A stretch of 64,000 nucleotides of DNA from Candidatus Bathyarchaeia archaeon (GCA_050014495.1 JBEKDF010000007.1:31094-95093), one strand, 5' to 3'. Numbered from the stretch's first letter, positions 35,294 to 42,984 are shown. The notes: a model not told the origin generated them from the sequence alone. Numbers and translations are program-made.

Positions 35294-36031
35294 TCAGTGC
35301 TCTCTAAACAGACTACCGAAGCCGTTGATTTTGTCATCGATGTTCATTTTTCGCAGGGTGGCCCAGAACGTCGCTTGGTTTGAGGTTATTACGGGTTTTC
35401 CCATCTTTCTCTCGAATTCATCGATTCGGGCTAGGGTTGCGAAGTTGGTGCAGGATACGAAGATTCCCTCTGCGTCGCTGCTGTCGACTTTCCTGGCGAT
35501 GTACTCAAACTGGTCTATTGGCTGGCGGCCAACGTGCACGGCGGTCGGTAGTACTAGGCCCTCTATCTTCGTGACGTTCATGCCCTTCTGTTCCATGAAC
35601 TTCTTCAGACGGGGGCTGGCGACCTCGTAGGGGGATCCGACAGCGATTCGTTTTAGGCCCATCGTTTTTAGGGCTTGCACTGCGGCGGTCGAGGTCACTA
35701 TGCATGGGGCCCCTCCTGCATTCTGCATGCGCTGGGCTAGTTCCTCGTCCCATCCGGCGCCGCGGAAGAAGCTACCGGCGGTAAATGCGAAGGCTAGCAC
35801 ATCCACCTTGGCTGTGGCCAGCTCCTGCGCGGCTTTCTCGCCGTTGCTGCAGCCGACCTCGCACATGCGTACGAAGTTTTCTTCGCTGCTTATATCGACG
35901 GGCGCGTACATGCGGGCGGTGTGGGCGGTCACCCCCTTTGGAAGTAGGCTGTAGATTTCTGGTTCAGCGACGGTGTTCATCGCTGGTAGAATCATGCCTA
36001 TTCTGCCTCGTTCCCCCAATTCCATGAGCAT
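35294..36031 (-). CDS. Maleate isomerase/arylmalonate decarboxylase (Asp/Glu racemase) family protein
   Basis: IGMILP..N.VAEPE, SPY, VSCTN, PVITSNQA..W; first catalytic Cys position is Phe (FAFTAGS). Confidence 0.88.
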   Translation of the reverse strand: MLMELGERGRIGMILPAMNTVAEPEIYSLLPKGVTAHTARMYAPVDISSEENFVRMCEVGCSNGEKAAQELATAKVDVLAFAFTAGSFFRGAGWDEELAQRMQNAGGAPCIVTSTAAVQALKTMGLKRIAVGSPYEVASPRLKKFMEQKGMNVTKIEGLVLPTAVHVGRQPIDQFEYIARKVDSSDAEGIFVSCTNFATLARIDEFERKMGKPVITSNQATFWATLRKMNIDDKINGFGSLFREH

Positions 36032-36992: not shown

Positions 36993-38147
36993 ATGAATCC
37001 TGATACCTCCAAACAAGCAAAGCCCACTCAGGGAAGGCTCCAATTCATCGATTTCACACGCGGAATCATAATGGTGATCATGGCTTGGGACCATGTCGCA
37101 ACCTTCTGGTGGCCCCAGCACTACGGAAGCGAAGGCCTCGGGGGATTCTTCCCATACCTAACAGCTGATCTCATACCCTTCATGTCGAGGTTCATCACCC
37201 ACTTCTGCGCCCCAACATTCTTCTTCCTATCCGGGACATCGATCGCAATCTCCACCGCGAGGAGGCTTCAGAGGGGAGAGAGCCAAATGGACGTCACCAT
37301 CCACCTCGTGAAGAGGGCGGGCGTATTGGTCCTCCTCATGGTATTCATCGAGGGAAACGCCTTCGGACTCAGCCCCATCTACTTCGGCGTCCTCGGCTGC
37401 TTCGCAGCCTGCTTCATAATATTCAGCGTCTTCAGGAGGCTCCCGTGGCAGGTCATACTCACGGTATCTCTAGTCATCGTTATTTTCCATCCGCTCCTCG
37501 ACCTGAGCTTCCTCCCACAAGAGGGCCTCGGGCTCATGCTGAGACTCTATCTCCATGAGCCAAACCTAACAAGCTACTACCCCTTCCAGGTCCTCTACCC
37601 CATAATCCCGTGGGTCGGCGTCATGGGGCTGGGATGGTGCTTCGGCGTGCTCCTCAACCGCCTAGACAGGACTCGGATAAAGAGACTGGCGACGCCAATC
37701 GCCCTGACAGGGGTGGCCTCAATCATCGCATTTGTGGTGATCCGGTGGCTCAACGGCTACGGTAACCTGGTACCGAGGAGCGGAGACACAATCCAGGCCT
37801 GGCTGGCGGTCTCGAAGTATCCCCCGGACCTGGCTTTTCTCTCTATAACCCTCGGTGGCATGTGTCTGCTGCTGGCGCTTGGCATTCGCATAGAGGATAA
37901 GAAGTGGTTTAATGGGGGAGTAATTGGTGTTCTGCTCGTCTTTGGTCGGAACCCCCTCTTCTTCTACGTCACTCACTTGGTTCTCTACAGGGTCCGCCCA
38001 TTCTACACTGTTTTGCCCCTATTCTCTATGGATCTCCCCACCATCATTGCCTTCTGGTTTTTGGGCCTCATAGTGATGTGGAGGCTGTGTCTACGATACG
38101 AGAAGTTTAAGAGGGCTCACCCAGAGTCGCTTCTCCAATATATCTAG
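36993..38147 (+). CDS. DUF1624/HGSNAT-like membrane acyltransferase
   Basis: IDFTRG..M..MAWDH, THFCAPTF.FLSG, YPIIPW.GVM, SKYPP. Confidence 0.88.
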   Translation: MNPDTSKQAKPTQGRLQFIDFTRGIIMVIMAWDHVATFWWPQHYGSEGLGGFFPYLTADLIPFMSRFITHFCAPTFFFLSGTSIAISTARRLQRGESQMDVTIHLVKRAGVLVLLMVFIEGNAFGLSPIYFGVLGCFAACFIIFSVFRRLPWQVILTVSLVIVIFHPLLDLSFLPQEGLGLMLRLYLHEPNLTSYYPFQVLYPIIPWVGVMGLGWCFGVLLNRLDRTRIKRLATPIALTGVASIIAFVVIRWLNGYGNLVPRSGDTIQAWLAVSKYPPDLAFLSITLGGMCLLLALGIRIEDKKWFNGGVIGVLLVFGRNPLFFYVTHLVLYRVRPFYTVLPLFSMDLPTIIAFWFLGLIVMWRLCLRYEKFKRAHPESLLQYI

Positions 38148-38158
38148 CCAAGGTGTGT

Positions 38159-38222
38159 GTTTGGGGTCATAGTCTTATCCTCAGTTCCACCTGATTGTTA
38201 CCCGTGAACTTGATTGATCTAA
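38159..38222 (+). repeat. Dispersed repeat, core copy
   Basis: GTTTGGGGTCATAGTCTTATCCTCAGTTCCACCTGAT, one mismatch to 60801-60837. Confidence 0.92.
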
Positions 38223-38257
38223 ATGTGCGCGCTCATCGTTCAGACTGATCAAAGAAG

Positions 38258-38542
38258 CTAGGATTTTATTGACACGTCTTCTTCCTTGTCCTCAACCCAC
38301 CAGACCCATGCTCCTTCCTCATTGCGTTTTGCCTTAATTGTACCGCTGAGCCTCATCAGGTTCAAGGCAACGACGCTGTCGAATAGGCAGAAATTCACTC
38401 TCTTATGAACCTCCTGCTGCAGCTCCCTCGTAGTCAGGGGCTTTTTCGCTTCCCTGAGGACTGATACTATGAGTGGTGGTCCACCTTTTGGTTCATCATT
38501 GGTTGTTGCTGTCAAGGAGTAGTCATCTTTCTCTCCTTTCAT
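38258..38542 (-). CDS. Small winged-helix-like protein
   Basis: PLTTRELQ...LMRLSGTIK.KR...WVWWV wing. Confidence 0.7.
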   Translation of the reverse strand: MKGEKDDYSLTATTNDEPKGGPPLIVSVLREAKKPLTTRELQQEVHKRVNFCLFDSVVALNLMRLSGTIKAKRNEEGAWVWWVEDKEEDVSIKS

Positions 38543-38570
38543 TCTACTTAAAGAAGTAGTCTCTACCTTT

Positions 38571-38643
38571 CAATAGACTTATCCTCACTTCCACCTGATT
38601 CTTTTCTGTGAGATTGTATTGGTCGATCTATCTGAGATTCAGG
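38571..38643 (+). repeat. Dispersed repeat, core copy
   Basis: ATAGACTTATCCTCACTTCCACCTGATT. Confidence 0.9.
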
Positions 38644-38659
38644 TTGTCCCTAGATATGT

Positions 38660-39184
38660 ATGGTGGGACACAAGAAATTGGTTGAGGAACTGAGGAGAAC
38701 CCTCAGAGAGGTCGCGGAGGAGAAGTCCGCCGACAAATGGATACCAGTGATAGGCGGCCTACTCTTTCCAATCACCATCGTCGTTAGCCTATTGGACCTC
38801 GCGGCTCGCAACTGGACATATAACCTACCCGTGGGGATCACCGGCGTTGCCATGCTCACGGCGGGCTTAACCCTCTACGCCGCATCCCGTAAGTTCCTCG
38901 GGAGGTTCTACTCTGAGGCCGTAAAGATCGTACCCGATCACAGGTTCATCACCGATGGTCCCTACAGGATGATCCGGCACCCAATGTATCTGAGTGAGAT
39001 CGTATTCGGTCTCTCGATCCCGATGATCTTCGACAGTCTCCTCGGGTTATTCATTATGTTAGTTCCCATACCTTTGATCCTTCTCAGGATCAGGTTCGAG
39101 GAGGGTGTTCTGGTCTCAAGGTTCGGTCAGGAGTACCTTGAGTACAGTCGCAGGACCAAAAAACTGATTCCCTACATTTACTGA
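38660..39184 (+). CDS. ICMT/PEMT-family membrane methyltransferase
   Basis: ITDGPYRMIRHPMY, RIRFEE..L..FG.EY.EY. Confidence 0.9.
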   Translation: MVGHKKLVEELRRTLREVAEEKSADKWIPVIGGLLFPITIVVSLLDLAARNWTYNLPVGITGVAMLTAGLTLYAASRKFLGRFYSEAVKIVPDHRFITDGPYRMIRHPMYLSEIVFGLSIPMIFDSLLGLFIMLVPIPLILLRIRFEEGVLVSRFGQEYLEYSRRTKKLIPYIY

Positions 39185-39214
39185 CTCCTGACTCCTCTTA
39201 CGCATTCAGAATTT

Positions 39215-39254
39215 TGTGAAAACATTGGTTTGGGTTTGGGGGATAAGACTATGG
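39215..39254 (-). repeat. Dispersed repeat variant
   Basis: GGTTTGGGTTTGGGGGATAAGACTATGG. Confidence 0.7.
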
Positions 39255-39309
39255 TTTTTTTAAAAAAAAACTGCCTTGCTCCTGATTCGAAAGCTTCGGT
39301 GCGCTTCGC

Positions 39310-39402
39310 GTGGCCGTTGATAAGAAGTTGTGGAAACGTAGAAAAATAGATAATGGAAAGCGCGGGCAGGTTCAGAGGAGAAAGAGGGCGCAAGTAGTAT
39401 AA
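39310..39402 (+). CDS. Unannotated 30-aa basic microprotein
   Basis: GTG start; MAVDKKLWKRRKIDNGKRGQVQRRKRAQVV*, 12/30 K+R. Confidence 0.45.
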   Translation: MAVDKKLWKRRKIDNGKRGQVQRRKRAQVV

Positions 39403-39448
39403 TTAGTAGGAACACGGAGAGAAGAGGGTGGAATAGTTAAGAAAAGCC

Positions 39449-39464
39449 AGTCGCGCGAGCGACT
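39449..39464 (+). other. Perfect 6-bp hairpin with GNRA loop (AGTCGC GCGA GCGACT)
   Basis: Read directly; just upstream of the alba TATA-like CTTAATTA. Confidence 0.5.
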
Positions 39465-39514
39465 CTAACTCAAGTCTTAATTAGTCGCCACGTTTACTCG
39501 AATCGACGCTTGAA

Positions 39515-39787
39515 ATGTCCGTTGAAAACGTCGTCTATATCGGAAGCAAGCCCCTCATGAACTACTGCATAGCCGTCGTTACATCGCTACAGGAAAAAGG
39601 AGGCAGCGTCGCGGTGAAGGCGAGAGGCCGAGCCATAAGCACTGCTGTTGATGTAGTTGAGGTGACGAGGAGCAGGTTTCTTAAAGATATCACTGTTGAG
39701 GGTATAGAGATTGGGACTGAGGAGCTTAAATCTACGGATGGGCGGATGAAGAATGTCAGCTCTATAACAATCATCTTAAAAAAGTAA
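39515..39787 (+). CDS. albA: Chromatin protein Alba
   Basis: IGSKPLMNY, KARGRAISTAVDV.E, IEIGTEE, VSSI.I.L. Confidence 0.97.
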   Translation: MSVENVVYIGSKPLMNYCIAVVTSLQEKGGSVAVKARGRAISTAVDVVEVTRSRFLKDITVEGIEIGTEELKSTDGRMKNVSSITIILKK

Positions 39788-39896
39788 TGATAGCGCGCGC
39801 GCCGAAAGAATAGGTCGGAAGATCTGGACCTCTTACTGAGAAGAATAGGAAACTAAGGAAACAGCGCAGACGAGAGAAAAGAGCCGGAAGAACCAA

Positions 39897-39968
39897 ATGA
39901 AGCACGGGAAGCATGGTAGTCAGAAGTCGAAGAAAAAACGGTCAAAAGATAAAAGGAGTAAAAAGTAA
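39897..39968 (+). CDS. Unannotated 23-aa protamine-like microprotein
   Basis: MKHGKHGSQKSKKKRSKDKRSKK*, 12/23 K+R; ATGA overlap upstream, TAATG overlap downstream. Confidence 0.55.
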   Translation: MKHGKHGSQKSKKKRSKDKRSKK

Positions 39969-40087
39969 TGGGAAAGAAAAAGAAGGAAACTGGCGGTAAA
40001 CGCTCCAAGAATCTACGAGATAAAATGTCCCGTCTGTCGGACTGGAAGAGGAAACAGAGGGGTAACATTAAGAAGTTTGTGAGTTGA
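39968..40087 (+). CDS. Unannotated 39-aa basic microprotein
   Basis: MGKKKKETGGKRSKNLRDKMSRLSDWKRKQRGNIKKFVS*, 16/39 K+R; GGAG upstream. Confidence 0.6.
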   Translation: MGKKKKETGGKRSKNLRDKMSRLSDWKRKQRGNIKKFVS

Positions 40088-40141
40088 TGAAGAGGAAGTA
40101 GTGATGAGCAGAGAAAGCGCGTAAATGGAGCCAATTAATTG

Positions 40142-40264
40142 ATGAAAGTGAAAGAGGATAAGAAGGGTTACAGGCTACCCACTGAGTCCGAGAAGCGTGA
40201 CGATAAACTTCGTGATGCGTTGAAGACAGTTCGAGGGACGAAGAAACATTATCCATCACGATGA
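40142..40264 (+). CDS. Unannotated 40-aa charged/basic microprotein
   Basis: MKVKEDKKGYRLPTESEKRDDKLRDALKTVRGTKKHYPSR*; TGATG overlap, GGAG upstream. Confidence 0.55.
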   Translation: MKVKEDKKGYRLPTESEKRDDKLRDALKTVRGTKKHYPSR

Positions 40265-40383
40265 ACCGGTATACTGAGCCTTCTCGGTTCCCCAGCATCC
40301 TTACTTCTATGCGCACGCGCTTCACAGAATTCAACTAAAATCGTCCAGGTTAGGCTTTTCCTAAAGAGCTCAGCGAACGCGCG

Positions 40384-41098
40384 CGTGATGAACAGATAGA
40401 GAATTCTGTGAGACCTTGAGGAATATGGGCAAGGTTGGTATACCTATACTGGATTATAACCGGAATATAATAAGGACCTGGAGAACCTCACATTGGACAC
40501 GTGGAAGGGGGGAGTCCTACCTAAGTAGCTTCGACTACAACCTCCTTAAGGAAGCGCCTTTAGCCTCCTACGGAACAATCACCGACGAGAAGTTATGGGA
40601 AAATTTCACATATTTTATTAAGTGGGTTATACCAGTCGCTGAGGAAGCTGGAGTTAAGATGGCCCTTCACCCAGACGACCCACCTGTCCCCTCGATCTGC
40701 GGAATCGCCAGAATTTTCAGGAGCGTTGAGACGTTCAAAAGGATGATAGAAATAGCTCCAAGTGACTATAATGGGTTAACGTTTTGTCAGGGATGCTTCG
40801 CAGAGAGGGGGGCCGACGTAATTGAAGCCATATGCTATTTTGGCACTAGAAAGAAGATATTTCTTGTTCACTTCCGTAACGTTAGGGGAACAGTGCCTAA
40901 ATTCGAGGAGTCATTCATAGATGATGGGGTGTGGACGTGTTAAAAGCGATGAAAACTTATAAAGAGGTAGGGTTTGATGGACCGATTGACCACGATCACA
41001 CGCCTCACATAGACAATAATACTGAATGGGATCATAGAGGCAAAGCATATGCTATAGGGTACATGAAGGCCTTATTAGACGTAATCAACGCCATATAG
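40384..41098 (+). pseudogene. uxuA: Mannonate dehydratase, 5'-truncated with two frameshifts
   Basis: RDEQIEN, ALHPDDPP, GLTFCQG, VHFRNV; C-terminus (DHDHTP..AYAIGYMKALL) in another frame to TAG 41098. Confidence 0.88.
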
Positions 41099-41170
41099 TA
41101 TGAAAATATTTGCATTGTGCGCGCGTATTAGAGAGAAATAGTAAGAGAGAGTGAAAGTGGGAGAGAGAAA

Positions 41171-41194
41171 GTGTGTGGGGGGATAAGACTATGG
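41171..41194 (-). repeat. Dispersed repeat core fragment
   Basis: TGGGGGGATAAGACTATGGT shared with 39237-39255. Confidence 0.65.
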
Positions 41195-41267
41195 TGGTGA
41201 TTAAGATTTATTTGTCTGGACGTCGCGCGTGCGACGCCAATAGTCTGAACATTAACGTGCGCGCGGT

Positions 41268-41915
41268 TTAGTTGATTTCCGACCAACGTGTTATTATTCT
41301 AATCCCCTCAACAGCGTCATGAGCTGCTGCGTCCGCGCCTATCTCCTCAGCGTACTTCTGGGTCAATGGAGCCCCCCCAATGATCACCTTGACCTCGTCC
41401 CTGAGTCCTTGTCTCTTAAACTCAAGCACTACATTCTCCATTTCACCCATGGTGGTGGTGAGTAGAGCCGACATGGCCACTATGTTAGGCTTATGCTCCT
41501 TGACGGCATTGGCAAACATGCTTGGTGAAACGTCGACGCCCAGGTCTATCACCTCGTATCTCTGAGCCTTCAGGAGGGTTACGAAGACATTTTTGCCTAT
41601 GTCATGTAGGTCGCCCTTGACTGTTCCTATTACGCACTTACCGGCGCTCTTCATGGTGCCTGTCTTTAGATATGGCTCTAGGATTTTCATACCCTCCTTC
41701 ATGGTCTCGCCCGCCATGATGAGCTCAGCTAGATAGTACTCGCCAGCCTCGTATTTCTCGCCAACAACCTTCATTCCCTTAGCCATGCCGCTGATTACGA
41801 CCTCGTAGGCTGGGATGCCTCCCTCAACGGCTTTTTTACAGAGTTCGGGTATCGCGTCGATGTTCAGTTCAATTATGGCTTTGCTAATCTCTTCTAATAA
41901 CGCCTGTTTGTCCAT
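41268..41915 (-). CDS. Methyltransferase-associated corrinoid protein (MtaC/MtgC type)
   Basis: GTVKGDLHDIGKN, DLGVDV, SALLTTT, IGGAP. Confidence 0.95.
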   Translation of the reverse strand: MDKQALLEEISKAIIELNIDAIPELCKKAVEGGIPAYEVVISGMAKGMKVVGEKYEAGEYYLAELIMAGETMKEGMKILEPYLKTGTMKSAGKCVIGTVKGDLHDIGKNVFVTLLKAQRYEVIDLGVDVSPSMFANAVKEHKPNIVAMSALLTTTMGEMENVVLEFKRQGLRDEVKVIIGGAPLTQKYAEEIGADAAAHDAVEGIRIITRWSEIN

Positions 41916-41916
41916 C

Positions 41917-42984
41917 TCATTGCCCCCCATATTTCTTAACTAAGTCTATTACCCGTTTATACTGCATGAAGCAGACGGTATTCGGTACGCTGTGGTCGCT
42001 ATGGTAGATGTATCCACCCCCCGTCTTCGCAGCGGATACCTTCTCCCTGATCTCCTCCTCTAGTGGTCTTGGGTCCTCGAGGTTCATGAGTCTAACGTCT
42101 ATACCCCCCATGTAAGCGATCTTGTCTCCGTACTCCTCCTTGAGTTCTATTAGGTCCATGCCCGCCTTCACCTCCAGTGGTTGGAGACAGTCTATCCCTT
42201 CCTCGATGAAGAAGGGTATCAGGCTCTTGACGTTACCGCAGCAATGGAGAAAGACCTGCATGTTCCTGGCGTGAAAGAAGTTGCATAGTTCCTTGAAGAC
42301 CGGATGGAGCTGGTCCTCGTAGTGGCGGGGTGAGAAGAACAGTCCATGCCTATACCCTAGGTCGCAGGCGAGAAAGGCCCCGTCGAACTCGAATCCACCA
42401 TCTCTCATGATGTCGCACATACCCATGACCAACCGCGCGTCGGTCCGGTACATGTCCTTGACCCACTCGGGTTCTCGTATAACCGCCTTCAGTAACCTCT
42501 CCGATGCAACATATTTCTGGAACTTGTCGTATCCCACCGTGGCGTTATATACGATGTATCGGCCACGGCTTCGCTCCTTCTGGTTCTTATGTAGATCATT
42601 GACCCAGTCAACCCTCCGATCGTTGGGCTGCAACCTTGGTTTGAGCTTCTCCCAGTCCATCCTACTCTTACACGAGTAATCGATGATCATGGGTGTGGTG
42701 GTAAAGTTCCGGTGGTTCTTCAGTACTTCACCGAAGCTGTCTCTCTCGACGATGTACTCATCATCGATTGAAAGAATCTCCTCTTTTAACTGTGGGCCCG
42801 TATCAGCAACGTAGCTAGCCATCTCGTATCCAAAGTAATCCGCTGGATCTACTCCAGATGGGAGTCCCTCATTCCTCCAACGATCTACTGTCGCCTGCCA
42901 AGGGAAGTCATGTATGGGAACATGGTCTGGTTCTCTATGTTTCAGTGTCATCTTAATTCGTTCCCGAGAATTCAAGGGAATCAC
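41917..42984 (-). CDS. UroD/MtaA-superfamily protein
   Basis: SRERI...PDHVP, LHCCG, QPLEVKAGMD, GGYIYHSDHSVP; adjoins the corrinoid gene. Confidence 0.88.
   Translation of the reverse strand: MIPLNSRERIKMTLKHREPDHVPIHDFPWQATVDRWRNEGLPSGVDPADYFGYEMASYVADTGPQLKEEILSIDDEYIVERDSFGEVLKNHRNFTTTPMIIDYSCKSRMDWEKLKPRLQPNDRRVDWVNDLHKNQKERSRGRYIVYNATVGYDKFQKYVASERLLKAVIREPEWVKDMYRTDARLVMGMCDIMRDGGFEFDGAFLACDLGYRHGLFFSPRHYEDQLHPVFKELCNFFHARNMQVFLHCCGNVKSLIPFFIEEGIDCLQPLEVKAGMDLIELKEEYGDKIAYMGGIDVRLMNLEDPRPLEEEIREKVSAAKTGGGYIYHSDHSVPNTVCFMQYKRVIDLVKKYGGQ

Follow-up and report, generated by a model that had tools for sequence, protein, structure and literature searches.

The DNA examined here, 64,000 nucleotides from an uncultured peat Bathyarchaeia archaeon (the whole stretch is called the window), carries a row of very small, basic open reading frames (ORFs) directly behind an alba gene. 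This raises the question of whether the row is a single operon that begins at the alba stop and encodes eight protamine- or eL41-like peptides coupled in translation, as a sequence-only reading had proposed, or a unit of another kind. Our analysis identifies it as a genuine cassette of small proteins, undescribed so far and with coupling-type junctions that are conserved; it is neither an alba operon nor a set of eight peptides. The reading that we favor, with a probability of roughly 0.55, is that of a separate, rearrangeable cassette (~39803-40376) in which p39 and p40 are real genes and p23 is a likely one, and for which we predict a single transcript and translation with the help of reinitiation (Table 1).

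The junctions on which the proposal was built are all present, namely, TAATG at 39785, ATGA at 39897, TAATG at 39966, TGATG at 40085, TAGTGATG at 40099, TAAATG at 40122, TGATG at 40140, and ATGA at 40261, and every peptide quoted for them was found, as was the K+R content of 13/28 in the 28-codon frame. As an ORF, this 28-codon "VGRSG" frame does not hold, since GTC follows TAG 39811 and the frame contains no ATG, GTG, or TTG. The chain from the alba stop therefore breaks after a single 8-codon ORF (MIARAPKE), with 86 nt between TAG 39811 and the ATG of p23, so that the junctions of the proposed chain stand while its continuity from alba, with a chain length of only 1, does not. Pyrrolysine read-through of TAG 39811 was considered and rejected, because the PylS and PylD genes are absent from this 96% complete genome (best hits of 21.7 bits against a cut-off of 178 and 24.8 bits against a cut-off of 150, respectively).

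When an ATG within -4 to +6 of a stop is counted as a link, a chain of seven ATG-initiated ORFs (p23, p39, MKRK, MSRESA, MEPIN, p40, and p25) runs from TGA 39898 to 40338. Composition-preserving shuffling, which had been named as a check, favors the chain: none of 2000 dinucleotide shuffles of 39785-40338 reached seven, and the longest chain had a length of 0, 1, 2, 3, 4, or, at most, 5 in 6, 982, 800, 180, 24, and 8 shuffles, respectively. The same segment holds 14 coupling-type words versus 5.8 +/- 2.3 in the shuffles, with at least 14 in 3/2000. Across the genome (6,216,800 strand-bases), chains of five, six, and seven number 45, 6, and 3, respectively, which places the cassette chain about at the genome's extreme and not beyond it; it is unusual to that degree. 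The second chain of seven spans 4.5 kb with a mean ORF of 637 nt and looks like an ordinary operon, and the third consists of one long ORF plus seemingly random micro-ORFs. The caution that purine-rich DNA by itself yields K/R-rich translations is borne out, as 39803-40141 is 72% purine, a skew equaled in just 16 of the 61,586 340-nt windows of the genome, and K+R makes up 0.30-0.31 of each of the three plus-strand frames.

Table 1. Coordinates of the features in and around the small-protein cassette, counted from the first letter of the window
Feature	Coordinates	Strand	Description
alba	39515..39787	+	90 aa; Pfam Alba PF01918, E 9.6e-16; separate module, outside the cassette
MIARAPKE micro-ORF	39787..39813	+	Spans the seam; unconserved
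(GC)5 alternating tract	39793..39802		Seam of alba module and cassette; cassette homology in L076 and L078 begins at 39803
p28	39814..39900	+	Start-less remnant of a 38-codon ORF; pseudo-ORF
p23 (MKHGKHGSQKSKKKRSKDKRSKK)	39897..39968	+	Candidate third small protein or translated leader
p39	39968..40087	+	Small basic protein gene, 39 aa, 16 K+R
Spacer, 54 nt	40087..40142	+	Tiled by MKRK, MSRESA, and MEPIN
Decayed GC tract	40114-40121		In the spacer; marks the joint of the p39 and p40 modules
p40	40142..40264	+	Small protein gene, 40 aa
p25	40261..40338	+	Unconserved as an ORF
Conserved cassette tail	40265..40376	+	Predicted 3' UTR and terminator; 13/112 columns variable
Further GC tract	40308-40320		Inside the cassette tail
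Alternating-GC tract	40377..40387		Right seam of the cassette
uxuA fragment	40416..41098	+	First ~167 profile positions missing; frameshift near 40931
All GC tracts in the window	38223-38232, 39793-39802, 40308-40320, 40377-40387, 41116-41128, 41224-41233, 41255-41265		

Two of the frames, p39 and p40, are real genes under purifying selection, and they represent orphan families of one Bathyarchaeia genus. In a DNA search of 18 genomes of the genus with positions 39400-40420, just three pieces found matches, these being alba, 39968-40080, and 40124-40268; 39791-39967, 40081-40123, and 40269-40420 had none in these genomes. The search for relatives thus turned out well for p39 and p40, which have them beyond near-identical strains, and failed for the other ORFs. 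Relatives of p39, at 72-73% amino acid identity, lie on contigs G000:C51, G011:C22, and G013:C82 (four copies in three genomes of the genus), and a class-wide search added one marginal hit. The sense frame of p39 has a pN/pS of 0.19, its DNA homology starts at the ATG and breaks off 7 nt short of where the stop codon ends, and 19/117 columns vary among cassette versions (4/8/7 by codon position). One antisense frame is likewise open in 4/4 copies, with a pN/pS of 0.24, and mismatches these homology borders. The spread of p39 in metagenomes was judged through cassette loci only. Ten pattern hits of a p39 motif in viral contigs were dismissed as chance. A second lysine-rich small ORF (MSESKGKSKKNRQ..., 46 aa) sits behind a GGAGG directly downstream of the p39 copy in G011:C22 (L046).

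As for p40, three paralogues occur in G000, the genome of the window itself, 19 matches were found in 10 of 61 genomes of relatives, all of one genus, and 14 loci in GTDB species genomes are all titled Bathyarchaeota or Bathyarchaeia. Its sense frame (plus frame 0) is open in 18/18 copies, while the other frames are stopped in 8-18 of the 18; dN/dS of the window copy against the 17 others is 0.05-0.41, and the variable sites in the cassette versions (13/120 columns) fall 3/0/10 by codon position. When p40 was run against a word index of 5.8 billion proteins, seven small proteins came back, all unnamed or "hypothetical," and a profile search of 1.84 billion representatives gave nine hits, seven of 43-65 aa and two marginal longer ones. 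The ESM Atlas yielded just a letter-identical record and no look-alike, and no p40 relatives were found in viral contigs. Neither protein has the distribution of a universal small ribosomal protein, which would be expected throughout almost the whole class: p40 is found in 10/61 genomes and p39 in 4/301, the marginal hit included. Among 53 neighbor ORFs of p40 copies, whose hits include TBP (twice), PIN, AcnX, and CdhD, there was no recurrent partner. The two genes adjoin only in this cassette and are usually located elsewhere and apart, which argues against an obligate pair.

The surroundings of p40 differ between cassette and stand-alone copies. Most stand-alone copies have a promoter-like AGAGGTTCTTTAAC box ~45 nt upstream, with a GC tract preceding the box, whereas in the cassette the box is gone and the ATGGAG element alone remains, so p40 seems to have come to lie behind p39 without its promoter. 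In stand-alone copies such as L041:1621-1680 (minus strand) and L027, the AGAGGTTCTTTAAC box is accompanied by an (A/G)TGGAG element at -17, a position that fits a transcript start ~20 nt behind the box and thereby makes a leaderless mini-ORF before p40 possible. Among 26 noncassette copies, a short ORF ends at the main start in 12 (11 of these beginning at -17), a two-codon ORF ends 8 nt before the start in 4, and neither is present in 10. The -17 codon is not a start in two p40 copies, in which GGAG is kept. In C16-type copies, the common part of the upstream small ORF is its 3' end only. Bacterial and archaeal upstream ORFs and leader peptides are short and poorly conserved and stop at the main start, and the ORFs ahead of p40 resemble them in 12/26 noncassette copies, although a known sensing function or stalling motif is missing here. 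Near two p40 paralogues, a sequence of ~45 nt (TCACCCTGAGCCTCATCTGATG...GGTGATATTGG) is inverted between G000:C16 (~40175-40220) and G000:C21 (~35650-35700). In addition, two intergenic pieces of the window (38156-38218 and 38560-38640) recur near p40 copies in L085, L088, L096, and L098 at 78 to 87% identity.

Next to these genes, p23 is possibly a third small protein or a leader. It has the lowest rate of variation in the cassette (5/69 columns in six versions, 2/0/3 by codon position), its three third-position changes are synonymous, and stops or frameshifts do not occur; this coding signal amounts to five variable sites, and it is further weakened by the GGAG ahead of p39, which sits within the last codons of p23, so that the 3' end of p23 would have to be kept in any case as the ribosome-binding site of p39. 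No relatives of p23 were found outside the cassette.

The remaining ORFs are unconserved as peptides (MIARAPKE, p28, MKRK, MSRESA, MEPIN, and p25), so that what is left of the proposed eight peptides is an undescribed, compact, and co-oriented set of small basic ORFs with p39 and p40 real and p23 plausible. The first two links of the proposed chain do not behave as functional ORFs. MIARAPKE becomes MIAR* in L075, because the GC tract there is 4 nt shorter, and its place holds different sequence in the versions other than the window and L075. The precursor of p28 is an intact 38-aa ORF (MKKERRTKDKVGRPGPLTEK...) in L076 and L078, and TAG 39811 of the window is AAG in 3/3 other versions; p28 has an early TGA in L075, its segment is missing from L079 and L080, and its changes are mostly nonsynonymous; it is start-less here and broken or absent in 4/6 versions. 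The leader segment varies in 19/94 columns. At L079:2005-2113, a small ORF (MNVEQKIAEFKNLYEEICACAQKKAGRTK) runs across a GC tract and its stop overlaps the p23 start, and L080 has an ORF that begins within the GC tract and likewise ends on the p23 start. Further downstream, MKRK, MSRESA, MEPIN, and p25, which had also been listed as peptides, change length, merge, or are shortened between versions: MKRK alternates with MKRKK, MKRKE, and MKRKM, MSRESA is merged with MEPIN in three versions, and p25 is cut to MMNR (4 codons) in L079, has its stop read through in L076 and L078, and carries a 21-nt deletion in L078. The spacer that the three shortest ORFs occupy shows four different ORF structures and 16/54 variable columns.

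The cassette versions also separate this block from alba. Searching metagenomes with the p40 alignment yielded 25 loci, seven of which hold the whole block at 90-100% identity; L077 is identical to the window, and L075, L076, L078, L079, L080, and L081 contain the cassette at 90-95% identity in differing settings. In related metagenome contigs the block extends over 39803-40385. It is colinear with alba in L075, where the joint at the alba stop reads differently, and in the DNA-run contig X21; in L078 and L079 alba lies inverted directly behind the block, with the right-seam tract fused to the tract behind the inverted gene, and the DNA-run contigs X13 and X20 contain opposite-strand joints to alba (39800/40260 and 39791/40359). 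In L080, the block starts at 39885, preceded by 72 nt from a different alba paralogue; alba is missing from the ~2 kb around the block in L076, and L081 begins inside the block. The left border is variable (39803, 39831, ~39875, and 39885), always upstream of p23. The upstream gene itself is a clear Alba gene (57.8 bits against the PF01918 cut-off of 25), and the homology of its paralogue on C51 to the window is limited to 39458-39790. This limit and the varied orientation of alba indicate that the block forms a module distinct from alba, which makes the TAATG at the end of alba an accident of this joint. With colinear, inverted, and alba-less versions side by side, the claimed link to alba is not supported and coupling to alba is unconserved. 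The contigs of L079 and L080 are mosaics of 70- to 1200-nt segments, each matching a different G000 contig, and many segment ends sit at GC tracts.

The borders of the cassette and the joint of p39 and p40 lie at alternating-GC tracts. GCGCGC-type tracts are found at the borders of the alba module, of the cassette, and of the truncated uxuA as well as at the p39/p40 joint, where the tract is full as GCGCGCGCGC in L076 and decayed in the window; the left border of the cassette in L076 and L078 has no GC tract. The hexamer GCGCGC occurs 1470 times in the genome, with 75% of its occurrences within the 18% of bases outside long ORFs, compared to 7-13% outside long ORFs for control hexamers, so that alternating-GC tracts are ~14-fold denser per base there. 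They peak 10 to 30 nt after stop codons. In related loci, 55/337 homology ends lie at most 5 nt from a tract, versus 3.5% of random positions and 6.9% of random non-ORF positions. Our literature search found nothing on GCGCGC tracts in archaea. Downstream of the cassette, the uxuA fragment covers positions 168-288 and 296-350 of the 352 positions in the Pfam profile of UxuA (D-mannonate dehydratase) in two ORFs and frames, and a full-length, single-frame UxuA match was sought at this gene and not found. The fragment is truncated at its 5' side immediately after the GC tract at 40377-40387.

How would such a cassette be expressed? No run of at least four T is present from the alba stop to 40356, and TTTT at 40356-40359 is the sole one within 39700-40450, hence also the sole one between alba and the uxuA fragment; it is T5 in L075 and L076. 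Together with the conserved tail, this T-run is a predicted 3' UTR and terminator. RNA-library contigs from two sediment libraries cover 39812-40077 and end inside p39, one of them with a depth of 62 over 39877-40007 and a GC tract before it, as in L079; they do not show strand or ends, may contain DNA, and have no cover on 40079-40500, so that they are silent on p40 expression. We infer that the cassette is probably cotranscribed, that p23 may be coding, and that ribosomes could be relayed across the spacer. Two independent small-gene modules would have been joined at a GC seam, which would have left p40 without a promoter of its own, and the cassette would now be read as one predicted transcript. 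Ribosomes would start at the GGAG of p39, located at -13 within the modal Shine-Dalgarno position of the genome, and would then pass on by termination-reinitiation at the overlapping stop and start codons.

The junctions in question involve overlaps of 4 or 1 nt (TAATG at p23/p39, TGATG at p39/MKRK and MEPIN/p40, and ATGA at p40/p25), and those of p23/p39, p39/MKRK, and MEPIN/p40 are invariant in all versions that hold them. From the p39 stop to the p40 start, the tiling is unbroken in 7/7 cassette versions, even though spacers have lost a stop, turned a stop into a sense codon, gained 3 nt, or lost 1 nt, and the variable sites avoid the junction codons. Among random mutants carrying as many changes, the tiling persists in 18-41% if only ATG counts as a start and in 29-72% if any start does. 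Since the seven versions are close kin and not seven independent trials, and since two of the three frames end at the p40 start within a T-poor spacer and make the tiling partly automatic, this evidence is suggestive only. Junctions kept in relatives were thus found for the stretch from p39 to p40, among close kin, and not for the alba junction. Huber et al. (2023; PMC10666635) describe gaps of ~20 nt as nearly abolishing coupling in Haloferax volcanii and Escherichia coli. By that measure, the 54-nt gap would require either a relay or a separate start for p40. A termination-reinitiation relay from p39 to p40 is possible on these grounds, and in it MKRK, MSRESA, and MEPIN would hand terminating ribosomes across a gap too wide for direct termination-reinitiation, while p23 would likewise feed ribosomes to p39. 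The fullest version of this scheme, a three-protein, fully coupled micro-operon in which a row of micro-ORFs maintained by selection serves the promoter-less p40 and p23 feeds p39, is in our opinion tentative and more doubtful than the cassette as such.

The strongest competitor explains the same overlaps without coupling, with p39 and p40 each starting at its own GGAG, p23 being the untranslated leader of p39, and the overlaps a by-product of a purine-rich, T-poor composition. Lysine-rich ORFs begin with ATGAAR, so that ATGA arises automatically, and the ATGA at p23, p40, and p25 is indeed built into an M-K or M-N start; K+R is ~0.30 in all three frames, two of these frames stop at the p40 start, GGAG precedes p39 at -13 and p40 at -15 (the genome-wide GGAG/GGTG peak lies at -13 to -9), elsewhere in the genome a row of seven occurs that seems random, and the micro-ORF peptides are unconserved. 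Against it stand the absence of any chain of seven from 2000 dinucleotide shuffles, the survival of the tiling through four spacer changes with variable sites off the junction codons, and the status of p23 as the least variable segment, and we regard this explanation as a real but minority possibility.

Far less can be said for the original proposal of one operon of eight coupled protamine- or eL41-like peptides that runs from the alba stop and works with Alba. All of its junctions exist, no T-run follows alba, alba or a fragment of it adjoins the cassette in the window and in 4/5 other versions with visible flanks, and C51 carries alba and p39 once more, with 3 kb between them; this pair is convergent, however, orientation and joint differ among versions, p28 and the 86-nt gap interrupt the row, and no known basic peptide family gave a profile match, so that the inverted and alba-less versions already contradict the proposal, which we consider very improbable. 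Still less probable is that a larger gene has decayed here, or that the true genes are two minus-strand ORFs (39853-40134 and 40068-40334). No cassette version interrupts either of these long antisense ORFs, and the adjoining uxuA is broken, yet the pyrimidine-rich strand lacks stops by composition, five ORFs have no Pfam or NCBIfam match, homology in distant copies is confined to the two short sense ORFs, and for p40 the comparison of 18 copies, in which the 40-codon sense frame alone is always open, contradicts this reading. Equally slight are the chances of a structured noncoding RNA with incidental ORFs, in favor of which one might cite the RNA-library cover of part of the region and the high conservation of the p23 segment: an Rfam scan of 38000-42000 gave no match in the alba-to-uxuA region, the variable sites of p40 fall 3/0/10 by codon position, and the fold of 39803-40376 has a z of +1.06, with 88/100 shuffles folding as well. 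Outside that region, the scan returned a subthreshold Hammerhead_3 match at 38321-38379 on the minus strand (25.8 bits against a gathering score of 48.5, E 0.022), which sits within an ORF at 38258-38542.

We therefore return to the cassette reading and to what its products may do. The suggested likeness to protamines or eL41 is not supported, as Pfam and NCBIfam gave no match at E values of up to 10 (only noise, E of at least 0.08, for p28, p23, p39, p40, and p25), and the ORFs are lysine-rich, not arginine-rich. Both libraries include an eL41 model. eL41 and the protamines are very basic, short, and arginine-dominated proteins; the cassette ORFs are similar in size and high positive charge (K+R of 12/23 in p23 and 16/39 in p39) but differ in lacking a profile match, in being rich in lysine (10 K and 2 R in p23), and in being limited to one genus and not universal. 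The predicted model of p40 has one helix (residues 15-31) with basic tails at a mean pLDDT of 69.8. Charge and the predicted single helix or disorder could point to a nucleic-acid- or ribosome-binding role, a suggestion we make with reserve. No family, fold, or conserved neighbor hinting at function emerged from Pfam, NCBIfam, the ESM Atlas, the 53 neighbor ORFs, or the large protein searches, and nothing was found in the literature on these small Bathyarchaeia proteins. With regard to their junctions, work by Huber and colleagues from 2019 reportedly showed that overlapping, co-directional gene pairs are translated by termination-reinitiation. The cassette resembles such pairs in its co-oriented ORFs and in its overlaps, which are 4 nt long at ATGA and 1 nt long at TGATG or TAATG, and it appears to differ in that the ORFs comprise 4 to 40 codons and that the 54-nt spacer, which separates two genes seldom found side by side, is tiled by three of them.

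The small proteins of uncultured archaea are mostly unannotated, and our findings add to them two new families, perhaps three, whose coding signatures are clear. The cassette is also a natural test case of whether rows of overlapping micro-ORFs can move ribosomes across gaps that abolished coupling in the work of Huber et al. (2023). Our findings further show that a neighbor of a chromatin gene may owe its place to an accident of rearrangement, which calls for caution with guilt-by-association annotation in these mosaic genomes.
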